From Promethearchaeati archaeon (GTDB taxonomy: Archaea > Asgardarchaeota > Heimdallarchaeia > Heimdallarchaeales > Heimdallarchaeaceae), in contig JABLTJ010000002.1 in the NCBI GenBank assembly GCA_013166775.1, positions 78,264 to 142,263 on the forward strand: 64,000 nucleotides of DNA. Reading direction: 5' to 3'. A program made the translations under genes and the position numbers. Every line of letters begins with the position of its first letter. The stretch's first letter is position 1. Shown here piece by piece: positions 3,063 to 36,823 of this stretch. The notes below the pieces were generated by a model. That model did no database searches and was not told the DNA's origin. It saw only the letters and a program-made list of their open reading frames with translations.

Positions 3063-4066
3063 TATCTGCGTCCTCCTTCAACCTCAAGTGGAAACTTACT
3101 CTCTAATACTTCACTCAGATTCTTTTGAGCTTCTGTAGGATTTCGACTGAAATTCTCTAGAATTCTTAATTGAATCTGTTGTGCTCTAGTTACTGGATCA
3201 ATTGGGTCTATCATAACAGATAAACAGTAAGCTCCACGTTTAACATGACTAACATGTTTTTTATAGAGGCTTTCTAGTTTTACAGATTGAATACTTTCTT
3301 TTGACTCTATAGCAAAGAGTTTGGTTAATTCCTTGAGTTTCTTAAAATCATTTGCAACGAGAGCTTGCTCACTTGGTCTACCAAATAAAGCTTCAGAGAT
3401 AATGTTTCCATCAATATCACTTAAAACTGCTGCACCAATCTTGACTTTCCATTGCTGAGCGCCACAAAGCACATCTACAATCCAATCCCATGCGCTATAA
3501 ACTCCTTGTCCAGTTAAAGCAGACACTTTTTTAATGTTGAATGGTCTTAAATTTCTGAGAAATTTATCTAATTCAAATGATTCATTAATTTCCGATAATT
3601 CCTTTGAATTAGGTAGGTCTCCCTTGTTTGCTAAGAATAGTACTGGAGCACTTTGTTTTGCGAAATTTATATAATGCCAGAATGTTTGTTTTGATTCATC
3701 AAATCGAGCGTGATCAGCTGAATCTACTAAATAGATTACTGCATCAGCTCTCTCAATAAATTTTTTCCATAAACTTAATCTAAATGGTTGATGTCCTCCT
3801 AAATCAAAACAAGTAAAATTTAAATCACGATATTGATAATTTTCTAAATTGACCCCATAAGTAGGTCTTACAACTATATCATCTTGTTTTAGTAGTTTTT
3901 TAACCAAAGATGTTTTTCCTGCTCTTTCTAACCCTAGCAGAGCAACACTAAATTTATTCCTTCCTACAACTGATTCTTGGCTAGTTTCTACCTTCGTTGG
4001 TTGTTCTTGTTGCTCTCTTCTCTTCTTTTCTTCCATTATACGTTTTCGAAATTCATAGAAAGACAT
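3062..4066 (-). CDS. Arf/Sar-like small GTPase with a C-terminal extension
   Basis: P-loop GLERAGKTSL, G3 DLGGHQ, G4 ANKGD, and a basic N-terminal helix. Its stop overlaps the start of the downstream GTPase, so the two are translationally coupled. Confidence 0.7.
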   Translation of the reverse strand: MSFYEFRKRIMEEKKRREQQEQPTKVETSQESVVGRNKFSVALLGLERAGKTSLVKKLLKQDDIVVRPTYGVNLENYQYRDLNFTCFDLGGHQPFRLSLWKKFIERADAVIYLVDSADHARFDESKQTFWHYINFAKQSAPVLFLANKGDLPNSKELSEINESFELDKFLRNLRPFNIKKVSALTGQGVYSAWDWIVDVLCGAQQWKVKIGAAVLSDIDGNIISEALFGRPSEQALVANDFKKLKELTKLFAIESKESIQSVKLESLYKKHVSHVKRGAYCLSVMIDPIDPVTRAQQIQLRILENFSRNPTEAQKNLSEVLESKFPLEVEGGRR

Positions 4067-20095: not shown

Positions 20096-21616
20096 TTACA
20101 ATTTTTTCAGTACTTCATTAGCACATTGCCAACCAGACCAAATTGTAGATGAGTATCCACCTCCAGGAAAAGTCCAAGCAGATGCGAAGTACAGATTTTT
20201 GACTGGTGATTTGTTTTTCAATCTCATCATACCAGATTGTTTAGGAGTATAGGCAAATCCTAGAAAAGTTCCATTTGGATTAAGGGTATATTCCACTTTT
20301 GTTCTAGGTGTTGAAACATAATAGTAATCGATATGACCTACCATATCTGGCATTAGTTTGTATAAACGATCAATGAACATATGTGCAACTTCTTTCTTCT
20401 TTGCAGTATATTCTGCTTTGCTCAAACCCCCCCAGTTTTCAATATAGTCCACAACGCTGATTACGCCGATACTACGCCCAGAACTAGCAAGCATTGAATC
20501 GATTTGGCTAAAATCAACAAAAATGAAATTTCGTTTCTCATAATCTCCTTTATGATTATCTGCTATTTGATGGAGACTAATAATACTTGGGTCATTCACT
20601 ACTGTAGTATAACTAGTATTTCCAATTTCTATTGGAGGTTTATTGAAACCAAGGTAGATGTTAAGTATTGAATGACCTACATCTAGTTTATTAATTTGCT
20701 CTCTGAATTTCTTGTGACGCTTTCCTTGTAATAGCTCATTTGCAACCTGAGGGACAGGTGCATTTGCGATGATAATTTTTCCACTAATTTTGTGAATTTT
20801 TTTGTCGCTTTCTTTTTTAGATATATACTCAACTCCACAAGCTTTTCCTCTTTCAACTACAATTCTTGTGACTACTCTATCAAACAGAAAGGTTCCACCA
20901 TGTTGTTTGATGAATTTTACAAGACCGTAACTAAATTTGATCGAACCACCTTTAATATAGTGAGTTCCACCCTTAAAGCGTGTTGAGAGTGCGATTGCAT
21001 AAATTATAGCAGATAGTTTGTAAGGATCGTCTCCATAGTATTGAATAGTACCTGCTAATGCAAGTTTAAGATCTTCATTATTAAAATGTGAATCAAATAG
21101 ATCTCCAGCTGTCTTTCCTCCCCATCTAGGAATACTTGGAAAAATCATAGGCACAAATGGACCAATTATTCCTTGCATGAACTTAGACCTTGGTATATTG
21201 TGAGTGTCCTTTGTTATTGCATTTATTGTTTTGAAAAATTTCTTTATTGATTTCTCTTCATCAGGAAACCATTCAACTAGTTTCTCTATTGCTTGTTCTT
21301 CGTTATCAGGAATCGTAAAATCCTTTCTTTCATTATAAAATTTGTAAAAACCAGTTAATATCTTCTCAAATTCTATGTTGAAGAATATGTCTAAATCTTC
21401 AAAAACTTCTATCTTTGGATCTTTTTCATATAATCCATCCATTGCATGAAGACCAAAGTCAATCATATAATCATCGGAAAGTTTAAGACAAGAAGCATAA
21501 CCACCTGGAGTTGATTCTTGTTCTATTAGCAGAACCTTCTTCCCTTCTTTTGTTAATTTAGCTCCAGCAATGAGTCCTCCTATACCTGTTCCAATAATAA
21601 TGGCATCATAATCCAT
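20096..21616 (-). CDS. FAD-dependent oxidoreductase, phytoene desaturase (CrtI)-like family
   Basis: N-terminal dinucleotide-binding motif DAIIIGTGIGGL...LLIE. 506 aa. Confidence 0.7.
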   Translation of the reverse strand: MDYDAIIIGTGIGGLIAGAKLTKEGKKVLLIEQESTPGGYASCLKLSDDYMIDFGLHAMDGLYEKDPKIEVFEDLDIFFNIEFEKILTGFYKFYNERKDFTIPDNEEQAIEKLVEWFPDEEKSIKKFFKTINAITKDTHNIPRSKFMQGIIGPFVPMIFPSIPRWGGKTAGDLFDSHFNNEDLKLALAGTIQYYGDDPYKLSAIIYAIALSTRFKGGTHYIKGGSIKFSYGLVKFIKQHGGTFLFDRVVTRIVVERGKACGVEYISKKESDKKIHKISGKIIIANAPVPQVANELLQGKRHKKFREQINKLDVGHSILNIYLGFNKPPIEIGNTSYTTVVNDPSIISLHQIADNHKGDYEKRNFIFVDFSQIDSMLASSGRSIGVISVVDYIENWGGLSKAEYTAKKKEVAHMFIDRLYKLMPDMVGHIDYYYVSTPRTKVEYTLNPNGTFLGFAYTPKQSGMMRLKNKSPVKNLYFASAWTFPGGGYSSTIWSGWQCANEVLKKL

Positions 21617-23129: not shown

Positions 23130-24359
23130 ATGAGCGTTGACAGAGAAGGTTTAGAATCCAAAGTAGCCATATTGGGACTCTCACAATCTGGAAAAACTTC
23201 CATCAGACAAGTAATTTTTGAAGGATTTGCTCCAGAATCCACATCGCAGAATCCAGCAACAGTCAGAATTAACAGGAAGTTGTTCAATCTCGCAGGAAGT
23301 TCCATAAACTTATTTGATGTAGGAGGGCAGAGCGCTTATCTAAATGAAGTCTTTCAACAGTATCAAGAAAGAACTTTTTCTGATGTGAAAGCAGTTATCT
23401 TTGTTGTAGATGTATCTGATGCTGCTAACATAATGAGATCTAAATATTATTTTGATCTAACAGTTGAGAATGTCAAAGAGATAAGCAGAACTGCTAAGAT
23501 ATATGTCTTTGCTCACAAAATGGATGTTGTACCTGTCAATAAAAGACAAGCAGTACTTCAATCCATTAAAGATATCTTTGAAATCGATAATATGGAAAAT
23601 GCAGAGATTTATGGTACCTCAATCTTTGAAGATACGCTCTGGGATGCGATGCAGAAGATTCTTGCTTTGGTTTATCCTAAGGATGATAGCAAAACATTAG
23701 AAATCAAAGATGTTGTAGGGGCATATGATTTATCATTTTTAGCTGTATCAACAACTCATGGTCTTGTCCTTTATTCCCAACCAGAAGCTCTTGCAGGAGT
23801 AAATTATGAGAGGTTGAGGAATGAGTTGTCCAACACATTTTTCCCTGGAATGGTAATGGATTATGCAATTTTCTCATTGGGAAACTTTTGTGTTTTTATG
23901 AGGGAAATTGATAATGATTTAGTACTTACTTCAGTTTTTGAACACGGTCCTGATCTGGGTGATACTCGTAGTAAATTCCTAGAACTTAGTGGAAAGATAA
24001 TGCAAATCTTCCAACCTGATGAATTAATAGGACAAGCAAAGGCAAAGATGAAATCAACTCTATCAAAATACTTAGAAAATAACAAAGTAAGAGAGATAGC
24101 TACTCTTGAACGAAGGTTCGATGTTAAAGTGAATGTCAAGTGTGATATTTGTGGAAAACAAGTTCAAAAATCGATTCTAGATGTAGCTGTAGAAAATTCT
24201 GAAAAACTTGAAAGAGGAATAAAAATTACTGCAGGATTTGGAGTAACAACAATTGAGATGTATCCTATACATGAATGTATAGAAGGAATGAGAGAAATTC
24301 CAGTTTTCCTAGATAGTGATCTTGAATATAGAAGATATGATAACAGTAGACCAATCTGA
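23130..24359 (+). CDS. Rag/Gtr1-like GTPase with C-terminal roadblock domain and terminal zinc ribbon
   Basis: G1 GLSQSGKTS, G3 DVGGQ, and the RagA/Gtr1-type G4 HKMD. The C-terminal domain is roadblock-like, and CDICGKQ sits at the end. Confidence 0.7.
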   Translation: MSVDREGLESKVAILGLSQSGKTSIRQVIFEGFAPESTSQNPATVRINRKLFNLAGSSINLFDVGGQSAYLNEVFQQYQERTFSDVKAVIFVVDVSDAANIMRSKYYFDLTVENVKEISRTAKIYVFAHKMDVVPVNKRQAVLQSIKDIFEIDNMENAEIYGTSIFEDTLWDAMQKILALVYPKDDSKTLEIKDVVGAYDLSFLAVSTTHGLVLYSQPEALAGVNYERLRNELSNTFFPGMVMDYAIFSLGNFCVFMREIDNDLVLTSVFEHGPDLGDTRSKFLELSGKIMQIFQPDELIGQAKAKMKSTLSKYLENNKVREIATLERRFDVKVNVKCDICGKQVQKSILDVAVENSEKLERGIKITAGFGVTTIEMYPIHECIEGMREIPVFLDSDLEYRRYDNSRPI

Positions 24360-26207
24360 TTATTCTTCTTGTTCTTCTGTTTCTTTAATTTCTTTATTAT
24401 TTGTCGCTCCTTTTGTTAAGAAATCTGACATACTTTTGATTGCTTCCTTTGAAAAAATGCCTTCAGGAACTTCATCTTTTGTTTTCATTAAGAAACTAGC
24501 AAAACCTTTGATATCATTTGCGTCGAATTCGATTTGAGCAGAAGCTTCTTCAGATACTGCTGCGATTTCTTGTGCTGGTTCCTCTTCTGAAGTAACTTCC
24601 ATTTCTCCATTTACAAATGTTCCAGTTTCTTGTATCAGCTCTTCAGTTACTTCTGATTTTCCTTCTAAAACAGTTTCCACTTCACCTGGATCAGGAATTT
24701 CTAGAATCTCACTCAGACCAGCAGCTAGTTCTCCTTTAAGCTCAGAATCTACTGGTTTATCAGATGCAATCTTTGGAACTGAATCAGGAACTGCAACTGG
24801 CTCTATTACTTTTGGAGGAGCAGGTGTTTCTACTTCTTTAGCAGGTTCAGAAAAAGGTTCTGGTTTGACTTCAACTTGAATTTCAGGAATAATCTCAGGA
24901 GCTTCTTCAGTGGAAGTTTCTTCAACAAACTCTAGAGAAGTTTCAGCCATAATTTCTACAGGAGTCTCCTCAAGGGGTATGTCTTCTGTTGATTCTACTT
25001 GTGCTACTTCTATTGGAATTACTGCAGGAGTTGGTGCTTCTGTAGCAACTTCAGCTAATGTCTCAACAGCAGCTTCAACAGGTGCTGCAACTGCAGGAGG
25101 TTTCTCTATTTTTGTCTCAATTTCCCCTGTTGATTGAGCAAATTTGAATATTAGTTCATAGAGAATTTCCTTTTTCTGATCTGTAATCTCCGAAAATGAT
25201 GTGACTAGAAGAAAATTGGTTGCTAGATTAAAGATCATTCCGTGTACAGTTCGATCTGCAGAAGAAATAATACTTCCAGTAGAATCAATATCATCTCCTA
25301 AATCCTTTATCTGATTTTTAAGGTGATGTAGTCCAATTAGATAGTCCATTGATTTTTCGATGTTCACATTAGACTGCGAGGAAGCTCCGATAATTGGAGA
25401 ATAGGTTGCTTTATCAATTAAAACCATTTCGACAATGTCATATTCAGTAAGATCAAACTCTAAATCTAATTTGCCAAAAGTTGGAAGAATAGGTTCAGGT
25501 TCTGGATTCAAGAACTCTCTTAACTGTTTTATTCTAGGATCTTCTTGATGTTCCATAACATAGCTTTGGAATTCATTGCTTTGTTCAACTGCTTCACCAA
25601 CATTTGATACTAACTCGAATCTTCTAGTGTCAATACCAGATTCTTTCATAACGGTGAACATTAAATCTTTGAGACTTTCATAATAGTAAATACTAGTATT
25701 CTCAAATTCTATCTCGAAACGAGGATCATCGAACAGTTCTCGAATATGTTGATGAATTACTACCATTCTTTCAGGAGTAACTAAATCCACCTTATGACAG
25801 AGAACGGTAATATGGCCTTCAGGATTCTCTTTGACATATTGACGAATAGTAAAACTAAATCTTCTTTCTGATTCTTCAAAAAGTTCAGGTTGAGTGACAT
25901 CAACAACCCATACTAGAAGTTTCACATTGGAAAAAACAAGATGTCTAAAATGCGTAACAGCTTCATTCCAGTAGCTCTCTTGTCCTCCAGAATCGATAAC
26001 TAAACTCTTTTTTTCCTCATCAATAAAGTGACGTTGATAATGAACTGTAGCCATATAATCTTCTGCATCAGCAGGTTTTTTATCGAAAAAGACAACATCT
26101 TTTATTGCTGTCTTCCCTGCTGACTGTAAACCCATGAGAAGGATTTTATCCTCTACAGCAGGTGCATCTGATTTATCTTTGTATAATTCATCGAATAAGT
26201 AGGACAC
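24360..26207 (-). CDS. Rag/Gtr2-like GTPase with roadblock-like domain and a long acidic Pro/Glu/Val-rich tail
   Basis: G1 GLQSAGKTA, G3 DSGGQ, and the RagC/Gtr2-type G4 HKVD. It has a roughly 250 aa low-complexity acidic C-terminus. Confidence 0.65.
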   Translation of the reverse strand: MSYLFDELYKDKSDAPAVEDKILLMGLQSAGKTAIKDVVFFDKKPADAEDYMATVHYQRHFIDEEKKSLVIDSGGQESYWNEAVTHFRHLVFSNVKLLVWVVDVTQPELFEESERRFSFTIRQYVKENPEGHITVLCHKVDLVTPERMVVIHQHIRELFDDPRFEIEFENTSIYYYESLKDLMFTVMKESGIDTRRFELVSNVGEAVEQSNEFQSYVMEHQEDPRIKQLREFLNPEPEPILPTFGKLDLEFDLTEYDIVEMVLIDKATYSPIIGASSQSNVNIEKSMDYLIGLHHLKNQIKDLGDDIDSTGSIISSADRTVHGMIFNLATNFLLVTSFSEITDQKKEILYELIFKFAQSTGEIETKIEKPPAVAAPVEAAVETLAEVATEAPTPAVIPIEVAQVESTEDIPLEETPVEIMAETSLEFVEETSTEEAPEIIPEIQVEVKPEPFSEPAKEVETPAPPKVIEPVAVPDSVPKIASDKPVDSELKGELAAGLSEILEIPDPGEVETVLEGKSEVTEELIQETGTFVNGEMEVTSEEEPAQEIAAVSEEASAQIEFDANDIKGFASFLMKTKDEVPEGIFSKEAIKSMSDFLTKGATNNKEIKETEEQEE

Positions 26208-26315
26208 GATTACGACCCCTAGTACTGTCTAATATAAAGATGTCTGTGTAATACTAAAGCAAAATTTTACATATCAATATATCGATACTGACTAATGAAA
26301 AAGAGGAGAAAAGGA

Positions 26316-29300
26316 TTACTCAGGTTGAGTTTCTTCCAATTCTTGAGCTGCTAACATAATCATTACTGATTTCTTTCTTACTACCTCAAGCTTTTCTTTA
26401 ATCTCTGGAAGTTCTTTTTTAGCTTTAAGATCCTTAATCAAATCATCAACTTCATCATAAAGAAAATCTTGGTAATTCAGAAGGAAATTACCAAAATCGC
26501 TGTCAGCTAAAACTATAAGTGAAAGATTCTCAAACCCACCACGAGCAGCTTCATTTGAGAGTTGAATTCCATGAATAAAGCCTATCATCTTTTCTCTTGG
26601 AAGAACTATTGAACCAGTTCTTCTCCCAGCATCATGTTCTTCAAAACCAAGTGAGGAATATGCTTGGTCAGCTATCTTGAGCAAGAAATTCTCAACATCA
26701 ATTTGCATCCTATTCTTATATCTAGCAATGTTTAGAGAGTGTTCTTCCAGAAGAGGTGTTGGACCCTTTCTTTGATCGAAAATAGTTAGTATTACACCAG
26801 GAGATACAATTGAATAGTTTAAAGCTATATCTTCGTCCGTTAGGTTTGACAATAGTTCTTCAAATTCTTTTGGACGAGTTACTTTGTAAACTATGAAAGC
26901 TATTAAAGCAACAGCAAGAACACTACCTCCAATTATTAGGTAAAGCATCCAACTTGGGAAACCAGGTGGTACAATTCGAATCACTTTTTCTTCAAGTTCA
27001 AAACTACTTGAGGATCTGATATTATCACCATCAAATGTTGCATTAATCATTACATAATCAATTTCAGGAGACATAGTAAACACGACAGTTGCAGAACCTG
27101 AGAAATCTGTTGTTTTATTTAGTATAACATAAGTAGTATAATTTGTTGGAATTAATCCTTGAACTCCTGACGTTTGATCGTAACTATATGAATAGATGTA
27201 GAAATGGATTTCTTGTATTGGTACTCCTGTGTCATTTTCATATGTTAAAATACCTGTTATTGCTAGTTGTGTACCTTCTAGTACTGTGAAATTAGAAACC
27301 TGTATATCTAGGTACAAAGGTAAAGGTAATACTTCAAATTCGAATGTCAAGTTTCCTTCAGCAATTGCGTAATAGAATTTGCTTTCTACATAAATATCGA
27401 AGGAGTAATTTCCTTTTGGAAGTGCGTATGTAGAATAATTGAACCAGTATGTTGAAGTACCAGAAATATTATAGAACATAGTCGATACAGAGTTGACTTC
27501 AACATAATCAATCGATATATTTTGTCCAAGATGATCTTTTAGATTAAGATAAACAGTTACATCTTCACCATAATACACTGAAAATCTACTCTCATCTAGT
27601 ATAGACAAATCTGCTATTTTTTTGTCAACAATAAGATTTACTCTTATTGTTCTGCTTCCCCCAGCTAGTGTATAAAACTCAATGTCAACGAAAGTCACAT
27701 TACCATTTGTAATATTAGTACACTCTATCTCACAGTAGTAAATTGTACTGTCTTGTTTAGTTATATCTACTTTAAAATTATAAGATTCTTGATGATGTCT
27801 TGTATATAAATCTGTTATTTCTATTTGATTAACTGTATCTGTTACATTTACAATAAAATAAACAATGTCTGAGTAATTTGTTTGAACCGAATAAATATCA
27901 TTTATCCATTCTTTTTCCGTTGGATCTATATATTTAATATCAATGTCAGCAACTTTGATGTAGAAGGTTGCTGATGCTTTATTTGGTGCTAAACCTATTG
28001 CATCATCAAATAAATTAATTTGTAAAGTGTGATTTCCATCTACTGGTTTTACTTTGAAAATCCATGAATCTGCTTCTCTTAATTCATCAGTTTCATCATC
28101 ATCCCATTTATAGTAGAATCTAGCTAAATCTTGATTTACAGAACTATTGTACCATATTGGTGTGTTCCCTGTAAAAATATAACTCCCCCCATTGATTAAT
28201 TCTGTTAACACTCCGCTTTCATTTAGATACAATTTTATTATAGGTGCTTCAAAATCAGTAAGAAAATCAAAAATATAGGTTGCTGAACTACCTAAAACAT
28301 CAGTTGCTTCTATAACCACTGATGCAGTTTCGTTATGATCATAAAAATTCTGAGGATTTGGTAGAAAACTTATCTCGAAATCAGTTAGTGGTACATTATC
28401 ATTCCACCAGTTTTTCGTAAGATCAGAATCCCAATAATATCGTATTTCACTTACAGTTAATAGATATTCATCATAAACACTGAAACCAAAAATTGTACCT
28501 CCATTCACCGTAGTATTCTCTGGAAAAGATGAGAGTGAGATAATAGGAGCATCTGAATCAATTGTCAGTATTCTCGAAAACGCTTGAAAATTCCCAAGAC
28601 TATCATTAACAAAAATGTAGAGTAAAGCAGTTCCATCAGGTTGGCTTAAAATAAATTCATCTGTAAATTGTATTAGTGATGAACCATTCCATGCATAATA
28701 ACTGAAAACGGAATTATCATCATCAGTAATGTCAATTTGAATTGTAGCATCTGAAGGAATGTATATATTTCCATCTATCGAAGTATAATCTACTTCCAGA
28801 GGGATAGTTACATCTATTGTTGGTTTTGTTGTATCTATAATGAAAACTAATAATTTAACTTCAAAATTTCCTGCAATATCTAGAGCATATATACAGAATT
28901 CATGTTTTCCATCAGCAAGAGTGATTAGGTTAAATTGGTAGGGATAGATTAATGTTTGATTTGCTTTTTCATCAATTGAGTATAATACTATCAAATCACT
29001 TGAAAGAATATAATTATCAGTTATTGTAAAGATGAATATTGTATCAGTCGTGAATCTTGTATTATTATAAATTAAAATACTATTATCAATATTGGGAGCT
29101 GTTTGATCAACAGTGAGATTAAAGAAAAATATGTGTTCGACATCAAAAACATCAGAACAAAAAACTGTTAAGTTATGAAAACCAGGAGTAGAAGGAAGTG
29201 CATCAACTCCAGTCAAAGTTAATTGACCAGCGATTATATCTCCGTCTTCTCTTATTCCACCATCCCAGATATAACTAATAGTTCCGTTGCTTTTTTGTAC

Positions 29301-31091
29301 ATTAATTATTACTTCTTCACCACCAAGATAATAGGAATTGTTTCTTAATTCAGCTAATTCAACCAAAAATACGTTAGGATCAGTATAGAATTGAAACATT
29401 ACATTAGTTAAATGTTCATAATTATCATATGCAGAAATGTACAAATAATGATTTCCTTCAGCCGAAGGTAAGCTTGTTTGGTATATTTTTCCTTGTGCAG
29501 GAAGCCAAGGAGCATCTCCATCTGAATCCCAATGAAAATTTACATTATTGATTCCTAAATCATCATCTATCTCTACTTCAATTATTTTCCCTGGAGCATA
29601 CGTTGAACCATCAATCACATTATAAAGAATAACCGTAGGAAAATCAGAATCAAAAGTAAATTGATAGAAGAAGGTTTCAGTTGAATAGAAATCAATTATC
29701 CTCAAGGTAATATTATGTAATCCTGAAAAACTAGGATTTGTTATGTCATATGGACTACTTAATAGATACCACATTCCATTATTGTCCCACATATACTCGA
29801 CCGTATCAACGCTAAATGCCGTGAAATTTAATATTGATCCTCCCCCAATCGTTGAACCATTTATAGGAGAATTCAGTACTAAATTCGTAGTCGATGCATC
29901 ATAACCAAATCGATAAAATTCTGTTCTTGTATTGCCAAAAACAGGATCAATAGCTTCAGTCTCCAAATCATGCCAACCATGCACAGAAGGCAGATTTATT
30001 GTTGTTTGATTTTCAAAAGGTATCCAACTCCCCCCATCCCATCTGTAAGAGCTAGTAGAGCCATCAGTAACATCAATAGTCATTTCTTGAGCTGTTTGAT
30101 ATACTGTCTCATTTGATGCACCTAAAAGATTAATATCTGGAATTCTTTTGGATCTCATGTAAAGCTGAATTCCAGTCATTCTAGTTACATTATTTATCGT
30201 GTATGTATTACTATAGATATCATCATTAATGGTCCATGTTGTTGAACTTGTAGTACCATCATAAGGATAACCTGTCATATGCAAAAAAGAACCTGTAGAA
30301 GGTACTGAACTGAAACTTAATTGTATATCCCATCTTAATCTATATCCTGCTGGTATTGTAGTTGTAGAAATTGTGTCTGAAAAAGTTCTATATCCAGTCC
30401 ACATACTTATTGGGTAAGTCTGAGTTCTCGATGCAATTAATTGTGGATTGAGAGGATCAGCTGGATTAAATAAGTATAATAGCACTCTATAACCTATAGT
30501 AACAGCTTCAGAAAAAACTGCAGAATCATTAACAGTTAACCATGACCACCAATGAACTTTGCCTGAAATTTCATAATCCTCAGTAAAAACAGGACTATAT
30601 ATTTTAGAAGGCTCATTAGGATAACCTTGTTCTCTTAAATAGAACCAATTGGTATCATTAGGCCAAGTTTTAGGTACAGAACTAAGAGCTCTCCAGTAAA
30701 ACTCTTTGTTTAGGGTACCATCATTCTTAATCTCATCATATGGTACCCATTCTACAATGTTTCGTCTTCCATATGGATCTTCCCCAGAAGGATCTGTTAT
30801 TAGGGTTTCACCTACTCGTGATTCACCATAGATATAGCCAGTACCTCCAGGAAAGAAAGCGAAAGTTTCGAAATCACCAAGAGTTTCAGATTTTGTTACA
30901 GGATCATTATAAGGTGTATCACTTCTTGCGTCTGAATTCTTTGTATTGTCATTCATTTCTAAGGATTTATCAAGTTTTCTTGTATCATTTTTTTCTTTAT
31001 AATCTATATCCAAAAGACGGTTAATAACTAGTGTATTTAAGCATAAAATTATCAAGAATGTTCCAAACAATTGGTGGTTTTTATTTTTCAT
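26316..31091 (-). CDS. giant single-pass surface protein (1591 aa) with a conserved cytoplasmic roadblock-like domain
   Basis: Signal peptide, a roughly 1330 aa extracellular region rich in N-X-S/T sequons and beta-type repeats, one TM helix (SWMLYLIIGGSVLAVALIAFIVY), and a 220 aa cytoplasmic domain. Confidence 0.7.
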   Translation of the reverse strand: MKNKNHQLFGTFLIILCLNTLVINRLLDIDYKEKNDTRKLDKSLEMNDNTKNSDARSDTPYNDPVTKSETLGDFETFAFFPGGTGYIYGESRVGETLITDPSGEDPYGRRNIVEWVPYDEIKNDGTLNKEFYWRALSSVPKTWPNDTNWFYLREQGYPNEPSKIYSPVFTEDYEISGKVHWWSWLTVNDSAVFSEAVTIGYRVLLYLFNPADPLNPQLIASRTQTYPISMWTGYRTFSDTISTTTIPAGYRLRWDIQLSFSSVPSTGSFLHMTGYPYDGTTSSTTWTINDDIYSNTYTINNVTRMTGIQLYMRSKRIPDINLLGASNETVYQTAQEMTIDVTDGSTSSYRWDGGSWIPFENQTTINLPSVHGWHDLETEAIDPVFGNTRTEFYRFGYDASTTNLVLNSPINGSTIGGGSILNFTAFSVDTVEYMWDNNGMWYLLSSPYDITNPSFSGLHNITLRIIDFYSTETFFYQFTFDSDFPTVILYNVIDGSTYAPGKIIEVEIDDDLGINNVNFHWDSDGDAPWLPAQGKIYQTSLPSAEGNHYLYISAYDNYEHLTNVMFQFYTDPNVFLVELAELRNNSYYLGGEEVIINVQKSNGTISYIWDGGIREDGDIIAGQLTLTGVDALPSTPGFHNLTVFCSDVFDVEHIFFFNLTVDQTAPNIDNSILIYNNTRFTTDTIFIFTITDNYILSSDLIVLYSIDEKANQTLIYPYQFNLITLADGKHEFCIYALDIAGNFEVKLLVFIIDTTKPTIDVTIPLEVDYTSIDGNIYIPSDATIQIDITDDDNSVFSYYAWNGSSLIQFTDEFILSQPDGTALLYIFVNDSLGNFQAFSRILTIDSDAPIISLSSFPENTTVNGGTIFGFSVYDEYLLTVSEIRYYWDSDLTKNWWNDNVPLTDFEISFLPNPQNFYDHNETASVVIEATDVLGSSATYIFDFLTDFEAPIIKLYLNESGVLTELINGGSYIFTGNTPIWYNSSVNQDLARFYYKWDDDETDELREADSWIFKVKPVDGNHTLQINLFDDAIGLAPNKASATFYIKVADIDIKYIDPTEKEWINDIYSVQTNYSDIVYFIVNVTDTVNQIEITDLYTRHHQESYNFKVDITKQDSTIYYCEIECTNITNGNVTFVDIEFYTLAGGSRTIRVNLIVDKKIADLSILDESRFSVYYGEDVTVYLNLKDHLGQNISIDYVEVNSVSTMFYNISGTSTYWFNYSTYALPKGNYSFDIYVESKFYYAIAEGNLTFEFEVLPLPLYLDIQVSNFTVLEGTQLAITGILTYENDTGVPIQEIHFYIYSYSYDQTSGVQGLIPTNYTTYVILNKTTDFSGSATVVFTMSPEIDYVMINATFDGDNIRSSSSFELEEKVIRIVPPGFPSWMLYLIIGGSVLAVALIAFIVYKVTRPKEFEELLSNLTDEDIALNYSIVSPGVILTIFDQRKGPTPLLEEHSLNIARYKNRMQIDVENFLLKIADQAYSSLGFEEHDAGRRTGSIVLPREKMIGFIHGIQLSNEAARGGFENLSLIVLADSDFGNFLLNYQDFLYDEVDDLIKDLKAKKELPEIKEKLEVVRKKSVMIMLAAQELEETQPE

Positions 31092-31112
31092 ATTCTTCCT
31101 CTTCTTCTTGTT

Positions 31113-34100
31113 TTAATTTTCCATTTTTTGCGCAGCTAACATAATTTGGACAGATTTCTTTCTGATTTTTATCAGAATTTCATTTATCTCAGTTAGTTCT
31201 TTCTTCGATTTAAGAGCAGAATTTAGCAAATCTGCTTCATCATAAATATATTCTTGGTAGTTTAATAGATAAGTTCCAAAATCAGTATCAGCTAAAACTA
31301 TAAGGGACAGATTTTCAAATCCTCCTCGTGCAGCTTCATTTGGGAGTTGAATACCATGAACCCATCCAATCATTTTTTCACCAGGCAAAACTATAGATCC
31401 CACTCTTCTTCCAACATCATGCTCTTCAAAACCTAAGGAACTATATGCTTGATCTGATATTTTAAGTAGGAAGTTTTCTATTCCCATTCTTAACCTAATA
31501 CTGTATTTTTCAAATTTCAAGCTATGATCCATTACTAAAGGTACAGGACCTTTCTTCTGATCAAAGATAGATAAAACTGCACCTGGTGAGATAATTGAAT
31601 AATTTTCTTCAACTTCTTCATCAGTAATCTCTTCTAGGAATTTTTGGAATGGTTTTCTTCGTGTTACTTTATATACAATTATAGAAATAATTAATGCAAG
31701 AGCTAAACTTCCACCAATAATAATGTATAATAGCCAAGAAGGTAAACCGGGAGGAGGGGTTGTAAAAACTGGTGCCTCAAGAGCAGAATTTATTATTCCA
31801 TAATAATCATCTCCAGAGTAACTAACTTCAATATCAACATAATCTATATCAGCACTCATCGAGAAAGCCTTTTGGAAATAACCTTCAAAATCAGTAGTTA
31901 CTGTAAAAACTTCTAGATCATCATAATTAGCGGTATCGAAAGCATATACTCTTTTTCCATTTTCCTTTAATTTAATATAAATTGTAATTTCAATCTCTGC
32001 TAAACTTATTGGGGTTCCATTAAGTAATGTTAGTTGTCCAGTTATAATTAATTGAGCTTCTTCTATAATTTCATGTTCTGAAACTTCAATTGTTAACATA
32101 GTTTCGAGAGGATTTATTTCAATATCAATGATACTCTCCCCTATAAAGAAATTTGATTCAACGTAAATTACAAGAGAATAATTTCCTTTTCCTTGAAACA
32201 TTACAGAGGAGATATTGAATTGATAGAACCTATCAGGAAGCTCTGTAAAGTTAAAAATATGGGTATCTCCATCAATAATAATCATGATAATTCTTTCATT
32301 TTCACCCACATTATTTTCCAGTTTCATTACAATAGTGATATTTTCTTCGTATGTGACCTCTTGAATACTTCTGGAATCTATTGAAAGGCTTCCTTCTTTC
32401 TTTTCAATATCTAGATATATTCTAATGAGCTGTTTACTTTCTTCAAATTTGTAGAATTGAATCTCAATTTCTGTTAGTAAACCTTTAGTTACATTTGTTG
32501 CAATAATCAGAATCTCATATGTTATGTTATCTAATTTGATAATTTCAACAGAGAGGTTTAATTTCATATCTTTTATTATTTTATATTGAAGTCCAAGTAT
32601 TTCTAATCCATATGTTGCATCAGTTATATTTAGTACAAAACTTACATTATTACCGTATATCAAATTTGTTGAATTTTCATATGCATACAGGGTTTCAATA
32701 AAATCGTTTGATTTTGAGAAATTCAAAACTATGTTATCTACGAAAAAGTAGAAGGTTTGTGTAACTTGATTAGGAAATAATCCCACAGAGTCATCAGTTA
32801 GAATGACAGTCAAATTATGGAAACCATCGATTAGAGGAGTTTCTAACGTCCAACTTTCACTTTCATTTAAAATTTGGATATTCTCACTATAGCCATCCCA
32901 ATAATATTCGAAAGAAACTAAATCATCATTCACAGAAGCGTTATATACAATCTGAATTCCACTTTTGACATAATAAACACCTGAAGCATCAACCCATTTA
33001 TCTTTAGCTGGATTAAAAATAGCTAGGTCGACTATTGGAGCTTCAATGTCAATCAAAAACAGAAAAGTATAGGTAAAATTATTTCCAACTATATCTTCAA
33101 TATAAACAGAGAATTTCGCTGTAGTATCGTGTTGATAAACAGGGAGAACACTTATGCTAAGATCGTTTATTGGGGAAGTAAACCAAAATCCAGTAAGTTT
33201 ATCCCAAGAATAGCTAACCTCGTCAATAGTTAAATCTGAATAATCTTCAATTTCAAACTCAAGTAGAGTTTCATAATTTATTTTAGTGGTTACATTTTCA
33301 TAGTTAAGTAGAGTTATACTAGGAATTGTTCCATCTATTATAAGATTAAACTGAATACTACGAGCATTACCTAAAGAATCTATAGCTCTAATATGGAGGA
33401 TACTATTTTCGTCAGAATAAGCCAAATAAAAATGATAGCTAAAATCAATATATGGAGGATCACCCCATGCATATTCTGTTGTTACTAAGGGATCATCATC
33501 TACGATAGTAACTATTACTTCTGCATTAAAAGGAACATATTTATTACCATCAATGGTTACAAAATCAACTAAATCTGGTATTGATACAATTATTATTGGT
33601 TTTGTTGTATCTACAACAAAAACAAGAAATTTCTCATCTATATTTCCTGCTATATCAATTACTTTGATGTTTAAATAATGCGTGCCATCTTCTAAGTAAA
33701 TCAATGCGTATTGATAAGGCTCATTTAGGAGCCTATTTGCTTTACCATCTATTGAATACAATACAGTCAAATCAGATCCAGAAACATAATTATCTGTGAT
33801 ATTAAAAATAAATATTTGATCAGTTAGGAATCTGCTGTTATTATAGATAGAAATATCAGAATCAATCACTGGTGCTTCTAGATCTACAATGAGAATGAAA
33901 TAAAGTATATATTGAACATCTGAAGAGTCGTAAGTTATTATTGTAAGATTGTGAGAACCTGCAGTTAAAGGAATACCTTCTGAACCTTCTAATGTAAGTG
34001 TTGAACTGAAAATTGAACCTTCTTCTTCTATCCCACTATCCCAAATATAAGAAACTGTACCATTACTTTTTTGGATAGTTACCTTAACAGTTTCTCCTCC

Positions 34101-35870
34101 TTGATAGTATGAATTATTTGTCAATTCTTGTAGCTCGACAAGAAATACATTACTATCTGCATAAAAGTAGAAAACCGTACTATTAACTTGGTTTAAAATA
34201 TCAGAAGCATATACATACAAATAATGATTACCATCAGTGATTGGTATATTGGTTCTGTATATATTTCCAAATTCAGGATTCCATGTAGAATTTGAATGAG
34301 AATCCCAGTGATATTTAACATTTTTAATACCTGAAGAATCAGAAATCTCAACATCAATTGTTTTTAATGGAGCATAAGTTGATCCATTAACAACGTTATC
34401 AAGTAGAATAGATGGTATATCGGAATCAAATGTAAAATAATAGATGTAAATATCACTAGAATAGAAATCCGTAGTTCTTATCGTCAAGTTGTGTTCTAAT
34501 TCAAACACTGGGGCTAGTATATCATAAGGAGATAATAGAGGGATCTGTGTTTCGCTACTATCCCACTCGTATGTAACAGTATCCACAGCATAAGCTGAAA
34601 AATTTAGATAAGTTCCAGCTTCAACCGTTGATCCATTTGAATATGGTTCATGTAGTTCTAAGTTTATAATTGAAGCATCATAACCGAATTGATAATAAGC
34701 TGTTCGTGTATTATTATACACTGGATCACTGGCAACAATTTCTAAATCATGCCAACCAGCAGTTGTTGGAAGTGTAATTAGTGTTGAATTATCAAAAACA
34801 TTCCAAATTCCACTATCCCACCTGTACTTACTTATTGAACCATCAGTGACATCAATAGTCATTTCTTGAGCATTCTGGTATACAGTGTTATTCATAGCAT
34901 TATATAAATCGATATCCGGAGTATTGTTTTCATGCATATAAAGTTGAACACCAAGAATTCCATCTACATTATATATAGTGTAACTATTGGAATGAATACC
35001 ATCATTAATGTTCCAATCCATGTTTGTTCCTGAGATCCCTGAATCAGAATATTGTCCATCTTGTATTATGTTCAAAGTACAATGACCTTGTGTTGCTCCT
35101 ACATCACTATATGCATACTCATATGTTAATTTGAATCTATCACCTGCGGGAACAGTATACGATGTTAGCGTGCTATTTGTTTCTAACCATTCCCAATACT
35201 CTGTATCGGTTGGAGTATTAATCTTCGGTAATAGATATGCAACTGAAGTTATTTCTGTAGAAATATTCGTACTAGAATGATAGTGCCAGAGAATGATTTT
35301 TAATGTTATATCTATTGAGTTAAAATATGAATCATAGGGATCGTCGTTTAAATCTCTGTGCATATTAAAGATATAATGAACTTTATCTTCTATAGTTGTG
35401 TCATAATCTAAAACTGGACTGTACATAATTGATTTTAAACCTGAAGCCCAATAATCAACTCCAAAATAATAAGCATCATTTTCAGAAGGTACTGGAGCAT
35501 AGGTTATATCTCCAACTCCAAATCTTTTAGTATTTATATCCCAAGCATCATGCCCAAGAATACTATCATAAGCTGTCCACTGATAACCTGATCCATTTGC
35601 ATCCAGTTGAGAAGTGAATGTCTTATAGCTGAAGAAAGATTGTGTTTTAAAATCTCCTTCAATTACCTCTTGACGAATTTTATTCTTTGCTCCTTCTTCA
35701 ATAGAATTATCATTTCTATTATCTATTTTTTCTAGATTAGTATCTGAGGAATAATCTAGAAAATCACTCATTTGCTGCTCTTCTGGCATTGAAAGTTGAT
35801 AAAACACTAATGAATTAATAAACACGAATATTAGCATAAATGATAATGCTCTACTAGTATACAACTCCAT
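31113..35870 (-). CDS. giant single-pass surface protein (1585 aa), tandem paralog of 26316-31091
   Basis: Same architecture as its neighbour. The cytoplasmic tail is nearly identical between the two paralogs, whereas the ectodomains are much more diverged. Confidence 0.7.
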   Translation of the reverse strand: MELYTSRALSFMLIFVFINSLVFYQLSMPEEQQMSDFLDYSSDTNLEKIDNRNDNSIEEGAKNKIRQEVIEGDFKTQSFFSYKTFTSQLDANGSGYQWTAYDSILGHDAWDINTKRFGVGDITYAPVPSENDAYYFGVDYWASGLKSIMYSPVLDYDTTIEDKVHYIFNMHRDLNDDPYDSYFNSIDITLKIILWHYHSSTNISTEITSVAYLLPKINTPTDTEYWEWLETNSTLTSYTVPAGDRFKLTYEYAYSDVGATQGHCTLNIIQDGQYSDSGISGTNMDWNINDGIHSNSYTIYNVDGILGVQLYMHENNTPDIDLYNAMNNTVYQNAQEMTIDVTDGSISKYRWDSGIWNVFDNSTLITLPTTAGWHDLEIVASDPVYNNTRTAYYQFGYDASIINLELHEPYSNGSTVEAGTYLNFSAYAVDTVTYEWDSSETQIPLLSPYDILAPVFELEHNLTIRTTDFYSSDIYIYYFTFDSDIPSILLDNVVNGSTYAPLKTIDVEISDSSGIKNVKYHWDSHSNSTWNPEFGNIYRTNIPITDGNHYLYVYASDILNQVNSTVFYFYADSNVFLVELQELTNNSYYQGGETVKVTIQKSNGTVSYIWDSGIEEEGSIFSSTLTLEGSEGIPLTAGSHNLTIITYDSSDVQYILYFILIVDLEAPVIDSDISIYNNSRFLTDQIFIFNITDNYVSGSDLTVLYSIDGKANRLLNEPYQYALIYLEDGTHYLNIKVIDIAGNIDEKFLVFVVDTTKPIIIVSIPDLVDFVTIDGNKYVPFNAEVIVTIVDDDPLVTTEYAWGDPPYIDFSYHFYLAYSDENSILHIRAIDSLGNARSIQFNLIIDGTIPSITLLNYENVTTKINYETLLEFEIEDYSDLTIDEVSYSWDKLTGFWFTSPINDLSISVLPVYQHDTTAKFSVYIEDIVGNNFTYTFLFLIDIEAPIVDLAIFNPAKDKWVDASGVYYVKSGIQIVYNASVNDDLVSFEYYWDGYSENIQILNESESWTLETPLIDGFHNLTVILTDDSVGLFPNQVTQTFYFFVDNIVLNFSKSNDFIETLYAYENSTNLIYGNNVSFVLNITDATYGLEILGLQYKIIKDMKLNLSVEIIKLDNITYEILIIATNVTKGLLTEIEIQFYKFEESKQLIRIYLDIEKKEGSLSIDSRSIQEVTYEENITIVMKLENNVGENERIIMIIIDGDTHIFNFTELPDRFYQFNISSVMFQGKGNYSLVIYVESNFFIGESIIDIEINPLETMLTIEVSEHEIIEEAQLIITGQLTLLNGTPISLAEIEITIYIKLKENGKRVYAFDTANYDDLEVFTVTTDFEGYFQKAFSMSADIDYVDIEVSYSGDDYYGIINSALEAPVFTTPPPGLPSWLLYIIIGGSLALALIISIIVYKVTRRKPFQKFLEEITDEEVEENYSIISPGAVLSIFDQKKGPVPLVMDHSLKFEKYSIRLRMGIENFLLKISDQAYSSLGFEEHDVGRRVGSIVLPGEKMIGWVHGIQLPNEAARGGFENLSLIVLADTDFGTYLLNYQEYIYDEADLLNSALKSKKELTEINEILIKIRKKSVQIMLAAQKMEN

Positions 35871-36046
35871 TTAGACCATCAAATCTTTCTAGTTTTAATC
35901 TTATACTTTGAAGCTTACAGTTGAAGAAACTTCCAATTGATTTCTAATAAAGTTTCTTTCACATGCAATATTACCACTTATTATAAATAATGCATTAGTT
36001 TTAAGCTTCTCTTCTACTATTTGTGTAATATGAATATAATCGTGAT

Positions 36047-36823
36047 TTAGATAAATGAATCTTCATTTTCTTGATTGATTATTTTTTGCTCAATCTTAGC
36101 AACTTGATCTCTGCTGTTAATATAATCAATAAGCTCAAACGAATGAAAGAAAGAATTCAAAACGGTATCTTGAAGGTTATCTAATCCTTCTCTTGTAGTG
36201 TTTGAAATCTTAACTGAATGAATTCTATCTGAACCTATTTTAATCCCTATTCTATCTTCAATACTTTTGAGAAGATATCTTTTACCTTCTTCAATCATAC
36301 TATCATTTGTAGTAACAAATAATCCGTGATCTAAATGAGTTCCAAGAAGAATAATGCTAGTAAGATCTGAAATTAGTTCATGTTCGATAGCTCTATTTAA
36401 CCAATATTCTAAATTCTGAAAAGATTTGACATCTGCTAAATTATATGTCATAATAAGAATAACCACATCATTAATGCTTCTCACATTACGATACATATCT
36501 ACAGCATCCTCAAATGCTAATCCTTCCCCTATTTCAGATCTACCCTTTTGTCCAGGCAGAATAAACAATTGAGAGCTAATCGTAACTTTATATTTCTCAA
36601 TGTTTGAATACAATATGAAGTAATCAAATTCCAGATTAACTGATTTGGATAGGTTCGTACAATCAGTTGTGTCGTAAAAATGCCCCTTCTTGTATTGAGC
36701 TAAATTCAAGGCAGTATGAGTTTTACCTGTATGACCATCACCAATGAAGACTACTCCTCCTGTGCAAGTGATATCTGTTTCTCTACAGATTAAGAGTCTA
36801 TTCTTTGGTGAATCAAACCTCAT
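36047..36823 (-). CDS. atypical small GTPase-like P-loop protein
   Basis: P-loop GDGHTGKT. G3 and G4 are degenerate (LPGQ and THLD). Lies 177 bp upstream of the giant-protein pair on the same strand. Confidence 0.55.
   Translation of the reverse strand: MRFDSPKNRLLICRETDITCTGGVVFIGDGHTGKTHTALNLAQYKKGHFYDTTDCTNLSKSVNLEFDYFILYSNIEKYKVTISSQLFILPGQKGRSEIGEGLAFEDAVDMYRNVRSINDVVILIMTYNLADVKSFQNLEYWLNRAIEHELISDLTSIILLGTHLDHGLFVTTNDSMIEEGKRYLLKSIEDRIGIKIGSDRIHSVKISNTTREGLDNLQDTVLNSFFHSFELIDYINSRDQVAKIEQKIINQENEDSFI

Follow-up and report, generated by a model that had tools for sequence, protein, structure and literature searches.

Introduction

Asgard genomes encode many small GTPases together with longin and roadblock proteins, and which regulator is paired with which GTPase is hard to read from the genomes, a difficulty on which Tran et al. 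(2024) are explicit. In eukaryotes, the longin of folliculin (FLCN/Lst7), which in humans turns Rag GTPases off, belongs to the FLCN-FNIP GAP for RagC/D, and Arg164 of FLCN is the catalytic GAP finger (PMC8107286). Longin GAPs of the FLCN/NPRL2/SMCR8 class pair with a second, non-catalytic longin subunit (FNIP, NPRL3 or C9orf72) and promote hydrolysis of GTP by Rag or Arf GTPases. The combination of an arginine finger with a GP motif, defined in the loop where strand β2 starts, is reported as specific to GAP longins (PMC12290439). Asgard longins of the FLCN/SMCR8 type that carry both features are enriched in Heimdallarchaeia (PMC12290439; Liu et al., 10.1101/2020.10.19.343400). Both reports treated them as longin proteins and left the partner GTPase open: for the 2025 Traffic paper (PMC12290439) either Arf-related or Rag GTPases may be the partners, and the operon of Liu et al. 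holds a non-Rag GTPase.

On the lysosome, the membrane protein SLC38A9 communicates directly with the Rag heterodimer and the longin GAP (PMC8107286). In that system an organelle inside the cell carries the membrane protein, the anchor (Ragulator) and the GAP as distinct polypeptides. Plexins are receptors of eukaryotes that cross the membrane by one transmembrane (TM) helix, with a large domain outside the cell and a Rap/Ras GAP domain in the cytoplasm; their GAP activity depends on receptor dimerisation.

Here we describe a locus within a 64,000-nucleotide stretch of Asgard (Heimdall-group) DNA (the window), in which giant surface proteins with FLCN-class tails would act on a neighbouring pair of Rag-like GTPases. 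We give this reading a probability of about 0.6. As proposed, the locus shares with the SLC38A9-Ragulator-Rag-FLCN system the direct communication of a membrane protein with Rag heterodimer and longin GAP; unlike in that system, the GAP-like domain is the membrane protein's own tail, presumably at the cell surface. The operating logic would resemble that of plexins without homology, as plexins use a RasGAP-fold domain and the giant proteins a longin, and no RasGAP-type Pfam domain was found in the giant proteins. The tail falls in the same class, with the same two motifs, as the Asgard FLCN/SMCR8-type longins (PMC12290439) and the FLCN-like and NPRL2-like longins of Liu et al. (10.1101/2020.10.19.343400), and the entries published there may include fragments of the tail family. 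In the texts of these two reports, supplementary sequences apart, we found no description of a TM anchor, a giant ectodomain or conserved synteny with a Rag pair. The longin domain of a Lokiarchaeota Roadblock-Longin protein (PDB 8yqg) is 15-18% identical to the tail; its PDB name describes a roadblock-longin protein and, unlike in the giant proteins, points to neither a membrane anchor nor an ectodomain.

Organisation of the locus

All five open reading frames proposed in the initial annotation were recovered at the same positions. The module begins on the minus strand with a divergent Ras-superfamily GTPase of 258 aa (36047-36823), followed on the same strand by giant paralog B (31113-35870; 1585 aa), giant paralog A (26316-31091; 1591 aa) and a long Rag-like GTPase of 615 aa (24360-26207). 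A short Rag-like GTPase of 409 aa lies on the plus strand (23130-24359), convergent with the long one so that their stop codons abut. We consider it probable that the locus represents a conserved Asgard module with four parts: the gene of a divergent Ras-like GTPase, between one and three genes for giant single-pass surface proteins, and the genes of a long and a short Rag-family GTPase. The earlier description thus held for reading frames, protein architecture and GTPase families; it did not hold for the near-identity and length of the tails, for a homology to the GTPase at 2067-3062, or for the RagA and RagC labels.

The giant surface proteins

Paralog B has a hydrophobic segment at its N-terminus; its ectodomain, rich in sequons and with signals of Ig-like domains (Big_13/PKD), is followed by one strong TM helix and a longin tail. 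Paralog A has the same architecture, in agreement with the sizes and layout given initially, and the two proteins are 44.5% identical overall. The TM helix of A (aa 1381-1402; 26886-26951, minus strand) is followed on its cytoplasmic side by the basic residues KVTRPK, and that of B (aa 1379-1400; 31671-31736, minus strand) reaches a Kyte-Doolittle 19-mer maximum of 2.67. The ectodomains of A and B contain 36 and 35 N-X-S/T sequons, against 16.8 and 16.2 ± 3.5 in shuffled sequences, and none of 1000 shuffles reached the observed count; the ectodomains had rightly been called rich in sequons. A and B are surface proteins with a conserved cytoplasmic tail, and their large Ig-like and lectin-like ectodomains are probably N-glycosylated.

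The tail spans aa 1403-1591 in A (26319-26885, minus strand) and aa 1401-1585 in B (31116-31670, minus strand; tail HMM E 1.7e-110, included in alignment A1). At 185-189 aa it is shorter than the approximately 220 aa first proposed, and the two tails, described as near-identical, share 52-78% identity per 50-aa window. The ectodomains were said to be far more diverged. Their dN is indeed higher (0.35-0.86 between A and B, compared to 0.245 in the tail), but one part (aa ~324-770) is still 40-68% identical. Synonymous sites are saturated throughout (pS 0.64-0.74), which rules out recent gene conversion as the cause of tail conservation. With the lowest dN despite this saturation, the tail is under the strongest constraint in the protein, as the initial annotation had suggested for the intracellular domain.

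Fold and motifs of the tail

In the tail of A, two N-terminal helices precede an α/β/α sandwich with the order β-β-α-β-β-β-α-α, that is, a longin fold. The tail had been taken for a roadblock domain of the MglB/LAMTOR kind that shares ancestry with the C-terminal domain of the GTPase at 2067-3062. A Roadblock/LC7 domain has the order α-β-β-α-β-β-β, lacks the two C-terminal longin helices and is recognized by Pfam Robl_LC7, which matched no member of the tail family; moreover, longin-GAP proteins rank clearly above roadblock proteins. The homology described as visible could not be detected: the Smith-Waterman score of the tail against the 2067-3062 C-terminus was 33, compared to 31.7 ± 5.2 for shuffled sequences (363 of 1000 shuffles scored at least as high), and hhalign found nothing between the two. 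The fold and sequence tests therefore contradict a roadblock tail, which we regard as highly improbable.

The longin carries both motifs of the GAP class. The GP motif of A (G1443-P1444; 26760-26765, minus strand) opens longin strand β2 inside the family signature FDQxxGP, with tail residues G44-P45 sitting where strand E44-52 begins; that of B is at 31545-31550 (minus strand). Of 27 family members, all have the G and 23 the P, and FDQxxGP is kept in nearly all of 130 cluster representatives. The candidate arginine finger of A, R1517 (tail R118; 26541-26543, minus strand), belongs to the signature ARGGxEN, in the loop that leads into the last longin strand, and corresponds to the conserved Arg1515 of B (31326-31328, minus strand). 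R118 is invariant in 33/33 members and retained across the 130 representatives, where ARGGxEN, like FDQxxGP, is near-invariant down to E 1e-4. By hhalign, tail residues 71-159 align to FLCN 117-203 with 34% identity, placing R118 on the FLCN finger position, Arg164, in an alignment that is itself weak (E 0.2).

Among eukaryotic proteins, FLCN is the nearest to the tail by both sequence and structure, with a sequence link that is sub-threshold by every method (Pfam, hhalign). Pfam Folliculin (PF11704) matched 17 of the 33 members (best E 6e-4), with a best score of 20.0 bits under the cut-off of 23.3. An exhaustive HMMER profile search with the tail reached neither a eukaryotic FLCN nor a standalone longin, and a tail profile search of the PDB gave no matches. 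The tail ends after two helices, leaving no room for a DENN domain, and without that domain it falls outside the Folliculin family proper (FLCN/Lst7 orthologs). It further differs from FLCN/Lst7 in having neither the FLCN zinc-binding insert nor an FNIP-like Arg-less partner, and in following a TM helix that joins it to a giant ectodomain; its sequence similarity is below family thresholds, and its GAP activity is a prediction. The module showed no gene for an Arg-less partner longin of the FNIP/NPRL3 type. The Arg is found in A as well as in B, and the tail family is single-copy in many genomes. By analogy with the 8yqg dimer, tail homodimers are possible.

These data support the tail as a small-GTPase-regulatory α/β platform domain, and we think it probably is a longin domain of the folliculin/NPRL2/SMCR8 class. 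Alternatively, the tail could be a membrane anchor or scaffold: like Ragulator, it would bring the Rag-like dimer, or else the Ras-like GTPase, to the plasma membrane under the surface protein, with Arg and GP serving binding or folding instead of catalysis. This is unlikely: the motifs that are near-invariant over 130 clusters are exactly those that separate GAP longins from other longins, and the top structural matches are longins of GAP complexes, not Ragulator subunits.

The Rag-like pair and the upstream Ras-like GTPase

Both downstream GTPases belong to the Rag family, as first proposed, with Pfam Gtr1_RagA (PF04670) scores of 119.9 bits for the short and 90.2 bits for the long protein at a cut-off of 22. 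The long protein comprises a G domain, a Rag-type C-terminal roadblock domain (aa ~250-360), an acidic/Pro-rich low-complexity linker of ~200 aa and a short conserved C-terminal motif. Its profile matched Gtr1/RagA (2e-16) and RagC (1e-11) in the PDB. The AF2 model, of only moderate confidence, shows β-β-α-β-β-β-α at aa 258-360 and aligns to full-length two-domain RagA, Gtr1 and RagC over ~355 columns (E 5e-16). In the short protein, a G domain and a roadblock-type C-terminal domain are followed by a CxxC...HxC module in which C338, C341, H381 and C383 are invariant. Its profile matched Gtr1 in the PDB (3e-30), with an alignment extending to Gtr1 residue ~264-267, part-way into the roadblock domain. 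Thus a C-terminal roadblock dimerisation domain is predicted in both proteins, by the model for the long one and by profile alignment for the short one. The specific labels RagC-like and RagA-like are unsupported, because both proteins score higher against RagA/Gtr1 than against RagC/Gtr2. In a published phylogeny both eukaryotic Rag lineages nest among Asgard RagGtr proteins (10.1101/2024.02.28.582541). Rag/Gtr GTPases are obligate heterodimers of two paralogs, and the conserved adjacency of long and short genes suggests that their products may form a heterodimer too.

The upstream protein (36047-36823) is an atypical member of the Ras superfamily, as initially described, by both profile and G motifs. 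It gives a partial Pfam Ras match of 24.4 bits, and its profile finds Rab21, Sec4 and Cdc42 as best, weak PDB matches (E ~6e-4). The motifs G1 GDGxxGKTH, G3 xPGQ(K/R)G without Asp and G4 GTHxD are invariant across an alignment of 18 syntenic orthologs; the usual G3 and G4 motifs of the superfamily are DxxGQ and NKxD.

Linkage of giant and GTPase genes

A Rag gene lies directly downstream of a giant gene in 26 of 33 loci, compared to 4 of 179 background ORFs (Fisher p 7e-23, which overstates independence, the loci being related). The long Rag-like gene is directly downstream on the same strand in 25/32 loci, and the short one is convergent in every locus with enough downstream sequence. The module keeps its gene order in surroundings that differ between loci, as also seen in the complete genome of Ca. 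Heimdallarchaeum aukensis. Giant genes at a Promethearchaeota-labelled, an Odin-labelled and a third distant member locus likewise have long and short Rag-like genes beside them; no GTPase gene was nearby at 3 of the 7 distant members sampled, nor at ~6 Heimdall paralogous loci. The claimed neighbourhood of tail and Rag genes is therefore linked far beyond chance and reaches distant Asgard lineages. Neither a tail without a roadblock- or longin-like fold nor a chance-level co-occurrence with GTPases was found.

In 17 of the 21 informative loci, the Ras-like gene is the next gene upstream of the giant gene or genes and has their orientation, and a Ras-family gene is also near distant member L039. 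The tail could thus regulate this GTPase, or be a GEF, with the Rag-like pair as downstream effector or sensor. A G3 motif (xPGQ) without the canonical Asp would be expected of an unusually regulated GTPase, the targets of SMCR8-C9orf72 longins are Arf and Rab, not Rag, and the majority of longin complexes are GEFs (PMC12290439). Nevertheless, we judge this alternative rather improbable: FLCN, the nearest eukaryotic match, is a Rag GAP, distant member L041 has no Ras-like gene around it, and at L040 the closest gene of Arf/Ras type does not match the Ras-like profile or, with any strength, the Rag profiles, with the Rag pair present in both.

Proposed mechanism

For a tail acting on the Rag-like pair, we propose that the two Rag-like proteins heterodimerise via their roadblock domains, and that the longin tails, tethered to the membrane, form dimers (A-A, B-B or A-B) that dock onto the Rag G domains in the manner of FLCN-FNIP. 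The conserved tail Arg would then stimulate GTP hydrolysis on one Rag, so that the nucleotide state of the Rag-like switch at the plasma membrane would be set by ligands that the ectodomains bind, by their adhesion or by their clustering. In function, this would be a plexin-like receptor-GAP made of parts of the eukaryotic FLCN-Rag axis. The receptor-to-GTPase interpretation of the initial annotation is supported in part, namely for surface proteins, regulatory tail and Rag linkage, and not in its 2067-3062 homology and RagA/RagC assignment.

The locus is a concrete case in which an FLCN-type longin and a Rag-like pair are conserved together, in the unexpected architecture of a longin as intracellular tail of giant, diversifying surface proteins. 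It suggests that the Rag switch of eukaryotic nutrient signalling had a forerunner in an archaeal surface receptor. More tentatively, and with doubt, the folliculin-like tail of the giant receptors may be a direct GAP on the Rag-like heterodimer, and the FLCN-Rag switch may have begun as an outside-in, plexin-like archaeal surface pathway that was later internalised with its membrane. If true, the FLCN-Rag switch of eukaryotic lysosomal nutrient signalling originates at the archaeal cell surface. The system is directly testable with regard to whether longin GAP activity predates eukaryotes, the role of Rag GTPases before lysosomes and TOR, and Asgard signalling from surface contacts, e.g. with syntrophic partners, to a GTPase switch.

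Distribution of the tail family

The locus defines a widespread protein family of at least 130 clusters at 50% identity. In the 130 cluster representatives the TM helix is always ~205-225 aa from the C-terminus, and across Asgard archaea the TM-plus-longin cassette is joined to many different giant ectodomains; we therefore regard it as a common intracellular coupling module. The same cassette could instead serve trafficking or localisation of giant adhesins (protrusion clustering, quality control), with the GTPases controlling surface display inside-out. This appears quite improbable, as it does not account for the fact that the GAP-specific GP and Arg residues are kept, and it is compatible with a tail acting on the Rag-like pair, from which it differs only in the direction of signalling. 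Members of the family are currently annotated only as hypothetical or DUF2341.

Two tandem giant surface proteins with a conserved cytoplasmic tail

The initial annotation placed two giant surface proteins among small GTPases, and an ORF check found all five genes at the coordinates claimed. Four lie on the reverse strand: a Ras-like GTPase of 258 aa (36047-36823), giant paralog B of 1585 aa (31113-35870), giant paralog A of 1591 aa (26316-31091) and a long Rag-like GTPase of 615 aa (24360-26207), separated by 176, 21 and 108 nt. A short Rag-like GTPase of 409 aa (23130-24359) is convergent on the forward strand, and the stop codons of the Rag-like pair abut. A database search found the long Rag-like protein to be 100% identical to HGN29_02090 from an 'Asgard group archaeon' MAG. 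All relatives found by homology search and locus scan belong to Heimdallarchaeia.

Each giant protein has one strong transmembrane (TM) helix (residues 1381-1402 in A and 1379-1400 in B) and a hydrophobic segment at the N-terminus, in agreement with the proposed single-pass architecture. The cytoplasmic tail measures 189 aa in A and 185 aa in B instead of the ~220 aa first reported. The ectodomains are rich in glycosylation sequons as described, with 36 in A and 35 in B against ~16.5 ± 3.5 expected; none of 1000 shuffles reached the observed counts. Only 2-3 sequons occur in the tails, which is consistent with an exposed, glycosylated ectodomain. The only Pfam or NCBIfam matches in the ectodomains were Ig-like (Big_13, PKD and OmpL47-type).

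Overall, A and B share 44.5% identity, falling to 12-32% in the first 300 residues. The tails, previously called near-identical, are conserved at 52-78% identity per 50-aa window. Synonymous sites are saturated over the entire gene pair (pS 0.64-0.74), and dN reaches its minimum in the tail (0.245, compared with 0.35-0.86 elsewhere). Because dN is lowest where synonymous sites are nonetheless saturated, the similarity of the tails reflects purifying selection, as had been suggested. The same saturation rules out recent gene conversion as its source.

The tail is a longin of the folliculin class

A tail-only homology search retrieved very strongly conserved proteins from Heimdallarchaeia alone, most of them fragments at the ends of contigs. 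The AlphaFold2 model built on this alignment is confident (pLDDT 90.4, pTM 0.87) and shows the succession beta-beta-alpha-beta-beta-beta-alpha-alpha after two short helices at the N-terminus. This is the order of a longin and not of a roadblock, the fold assigned to the tail at first. In a Foldseek search of the PDB the best match was the Lokiarchaeota longin 8yqg (2e-5). Folliculin (FLCN) was also matched (8dhb_J, 3.6e-4, 23% identity; 6ulg_L, 22% identity), followed by Lst4, FNIP2, NPRL2/3 and SMCR8-C9orf72; roadblocks ranked low, the first being Ego3 with an E-value of about 0.2.

The Pfam family Folliculin (PF11704) was matched by 17 of 33 tail family members, at best with an E-value of 6e-4 and 20.0 bits, below the cut-off of 23.3 bits, and no other Pfam family recurred as often. 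Using a human FLCN sequence confirmed against PDB 6ulg_L, hhalign aligned tail residues 71-159 with FLCN 117-203 at 34% identity. In this alignment the invariant tail residue R118 (R1517 of A, R1515 of B) falls on FLCN Arg164, the catalytic finger of the RagC/D GAP (PMC8107286). Tail residues G44-P45, at the start of beta2, have their counterpart in FLCN G15-P16. Such a 'GP motif' together with an Arg finger has recently been described as setting GAP longins (FLCN, NPRL2, SMCR8/C9orf72) apart from the remaining longins (PMC12290439). A search of all PDB sequences with the tail family profile (hmmsearch) gave no match even at E 10, and the link to FLCN thus rests on the sub-threshold Pfam matches, the hhalign alignment and the structure. 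Judged from these, the tail is a longin of the FLCN class. It shares the GP motif and the aligned Arg with FLCN but lacks the DENN domain; given this absence, the sub-threshold Pfam scores and the empty PDB profile search, we rejected folliculin orthology.

These GAP-specific motifs favour the reading of the tail as a Rag GAP over its rivals. The tail could instead be a non-catalytic, Ragulator-like anchor, or an inside-out cassette for the sorting or positioning of adhesins; in both cases the GP and Arg motifs speak for a GAP.

The neighbouring GTPases

Both Rag-like proteins belong to the Rag family, as anticipated, with Pfam Gtr1_RagA scores of 119.9 bits (short) and 90.2 bits (long). Their labels as a RagC-like plus RagA-like pair had to be revised, since both are nearer to RagA/Gtr1 than to RagC/Gtr2 in profile searches (3e-30 versus ~1e-16 to 5e-15 for the short protein; 2e-16 versus 1e-11 for the long one). 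A published tree that nests the two eukaryotic Rag lineages among Asgard RagGtr proteins is in line with this (10.1101/2024.02.28.582541). A model of the long protein, of moderate confidence, contains a G domain and a bb-a-bbb-a domain at residues 258-360, and aligns with the two-domain RagA, Gtr1 and RagC over ~355 columns (E 5e-16). As the modelled long protein thus has a C-terminal roadblock-type domain, and the profile alignment of the short protein extends into the Gtr1 roadblock domain, a Rag-style heterodimer of the two is plausible.

Both proteins carry C-terminal additions. In the last ~215 aa of the long protein (24360-25000), beyond the Rag-type roadblock, lies a ~200-aa acidic low-complexity linker rich in Pro, Glu and Val. 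Its length differs among orthologs (whole protein 490-798 aa), and a short motif is kept at the very end (consensus ...S..DI...A.FL...K). Linker and motif may serve as a tether or binding helix. In the last ~75 aa of the short protein (24140-24359), C338, C341, H381 and C383 are invariant (CxxC...HxC), a pattern that indicates a small appended zinc-binding module. It is absent from the ~300-aa short Rags of distant lineages and is not known from eukaryotic Rags.

The upstream 258-aa protein is, as described, an atypical member of the Ras superfamily, with an invariant P-loop, xPGQ at G3 and THxD at G4. Its best profile matches were weak (Rab21, Sec4, Cdc42). An MglA-type identity, considered for the xPGQ motif, was rejected because the profile search gave weak Rab/Rho matches and no MglA; the protein is kept as divergent Ras-like. 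This third GTPase could itself be the target of the tail; action on the Ras-like protein, or a role as a GEF, is a further rival of the Rag GAP reading, which the GAP-specific motifs favour.

Conserved linkage among relatives

The linkage scan, which used one genome per species, returned 37 loci. Every one is from Asgard archaea, with few exceptions under the label Heimdallarchaeota, and the complete Ca. Heimdallarchaeum aukensis genome is among them. The recurring order was Ras-like, one to three giant genes and long Rag-like, with short Rag-like convergent, and it was kept while flanking genes vary and the giant proteins drop to 33% identity. The long Rag-like gene lay directly downstream on the same strand, with gaps of 39-110 nt, in 25 of 32 informative loci, and the short one was convergent behind it in all 18 loci with enough sequence (two apparent misses were antisense-ORF artefacts). 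A Ras-like gene stood directly upstream of the giant gene(s) in 17/21 loci. By HMM classification, a Rag-family ORF was directly downstream in 26/33 loci, compared with 4/179 other ORFs of the same loci (Fisher p 7e-23, inflated by the shared ancestry of the loci, although the effect is very large). The expected co-occurrence of tail and Rag-like GTPases was thus borne out among these related loci. Paralogous tail-bearing giants stood without a Rag pair at ~6 loci (L017, L029, L031, L034-L036), so that copies with and without a Rag link are both present in genomes.

The number of tandem giant genes differs among relatives (one, two or three; L012, L004, L010); at L012 (JAEOSZ010000165) three genes of ~1,610 aa follow the Ras-like gene. 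This variation points to repeated duplication and ectodomain diversification. At five loci (L001, L010, L014, L016, L027) two extra genes (~700 and ~385 aa) lie between a P-type cation ATPase and the Ras-like gene; they are missing from the corresponding window position and have no counterpart among the window ORFs. At L037 (8839-10248; DXJV01000091) the module has decayed: a frameshift interrupts the Ras-like gene, and all that is left of the giant gene is a TM-plus-tail remnant broken across several frames, with the downstream long Rag-like gene intact. Since an intact protein without an ectodomain also exists (P0022, 258 aa, on a 72-kb contig), short 'tail-only' membrane proteins may occur naturally.

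The wider tail family

An exhaustive HMMER profile search of 1.84 billion representatives (E <= 1e-3) defined a family of 130 cluster representatives at 50% identity. Every full-length protein among them is large (up to 5,809 aa) and carries the domain at its very C-terminal end. Nearly all representatives retain FDQxxGP, ARGGxEN and, ~205-225 residues before the C-terminus, a strong TM helix. The named members derive from Hodarchaeales, Kariarchaeaceae, Heimdallarchaeota, 'Promethearchaeota' and an Odinarchaeota-labelled MAG, and their ectodomains contain Laminin_G_3 and DUF2341. All matches were C-terminal tails of large proteins. Eukaryotic FLCN, SMCR8 and NPRL2 and standalone longins were absent, and the search yielded no transitive bridge to eukaryotes at the sequence level.

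Three of seven distant members examined (L039, L040, L041) have two Rag-family genes as neighbours, a long one (619-798 aa) and a short one (~300-340 aa). Three others (L038, RDOB01000005; L042, Ga0452210_001347; L043, JAEOUE010000295) share a second conserved context without a GTPase gene within 10 kb: a tandem pair of tail-bearing giants, one of them reaching up to 5,809 aa, followed by ~980-aa and ~78-99-aa proteins without Pfam match and adjoining a class I lysyl-tRNA synthetase. About 2 kb downstream of the long Rag-like gene at L039 (18679-19074; Promethearchaeota, JBHLLX010000015) is a 131-aa Robl_LC7/MAPKK1_Int (LAMTOR3-like) roadblock, which could be a Ragulator-like component.

A candidate receptor-fused Rag GAP

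The model we propose builds on what was observed: the architecture of the giant proteins, the signatures of a GAP longin in their tails, neighbours that are Rags, and a linkage that is conserved. The long and short Rag-like proteins would heterodimerise, and membrane-tethered longin tails, themselves as dimers, would bind the G domains of this pair in the manner of FLCN-FNIP, the conserved Arg stimulating GTP hydrolysis. Ectodomain engagement or clustering could then set the state of the Rag-like switch at the cell membrane. The logic resembles that of plexins, with the parts of FLCN-Rag. The Rag GAP reading has real weaknesses: a partner longin lacking the Arg is absent, a third GTPase is present, and some paralogs stand unlinked.

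Rag-family GTPases, longins and roadblocks of Asgard archaea have been published (including 10.1101/2024.02.28.582541), as have FLCN-like longin-DENN proteins and NPRL2-like longins, with a conserved operon containing a non-Rag GTPase (10.1101/2020.10.19.343400). Asgard longins of the FLCN/SMCR8 type that carry the GP and Arg motifs were described in 2025, with their partner GTPase posed as an explicit question (PMC12290439); some of these may be fragments of the tail family. MK-D1 GTPases have been stated to lie generally outside operons with longin or roadblock genes. In the literature searched we found no account of giant single-pass surface proteins that end in a cytoplasmic FLCN-class longin or of the conserved clustering of this longin with a Rag-like pair, and no paper on the Asgard PDB entries LokiRagO, LokiRagM and Roadblock-Longin. 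The module is presented as a candidate receptor-fused, Rag-linked longin GAP of predicted function, which bears on eukaryogenesis and Rag/TOR evolution.

Other GTPase-related genes in the window

The tail had also been considered homologous to the C-terminus of the GTPase at 2067-3062, but no such homology could be detected. The Smith-Waterman score of the two (33) is that of shuffled sequences (31.7 ± 5.2), and hhalign of the tail family against the entire GTPase and its C-terminal 145 aa gave spurious short matches only. That C-terminus matched neither Pfam (including Robl_LC7) nor the short-Rag profile. The gene encodes an Arf-family GTPase (331 aa, reverse strand) in tandem with a second one (3062-4066, reverse strand, 334 aa), whose stop overlaps the start of the first at 3062. 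Each has a C-terminal extension of ~135-145 aa without Pfam family or longin-tail match. A 256-aa ORF without Pfam match follows (1285-2055, reverse strand), and the three could form a further GTPase-plus-regulator module.

A 506-aa flavin amine-oxidase-like protein (20096-21616, reverse strand) has a weak Pfam GDI match (26.8 bits, residues 2-50), probably a mere shared FAD/Rossmann motif. A gene of this type is found near the GTPase module in many relatives.
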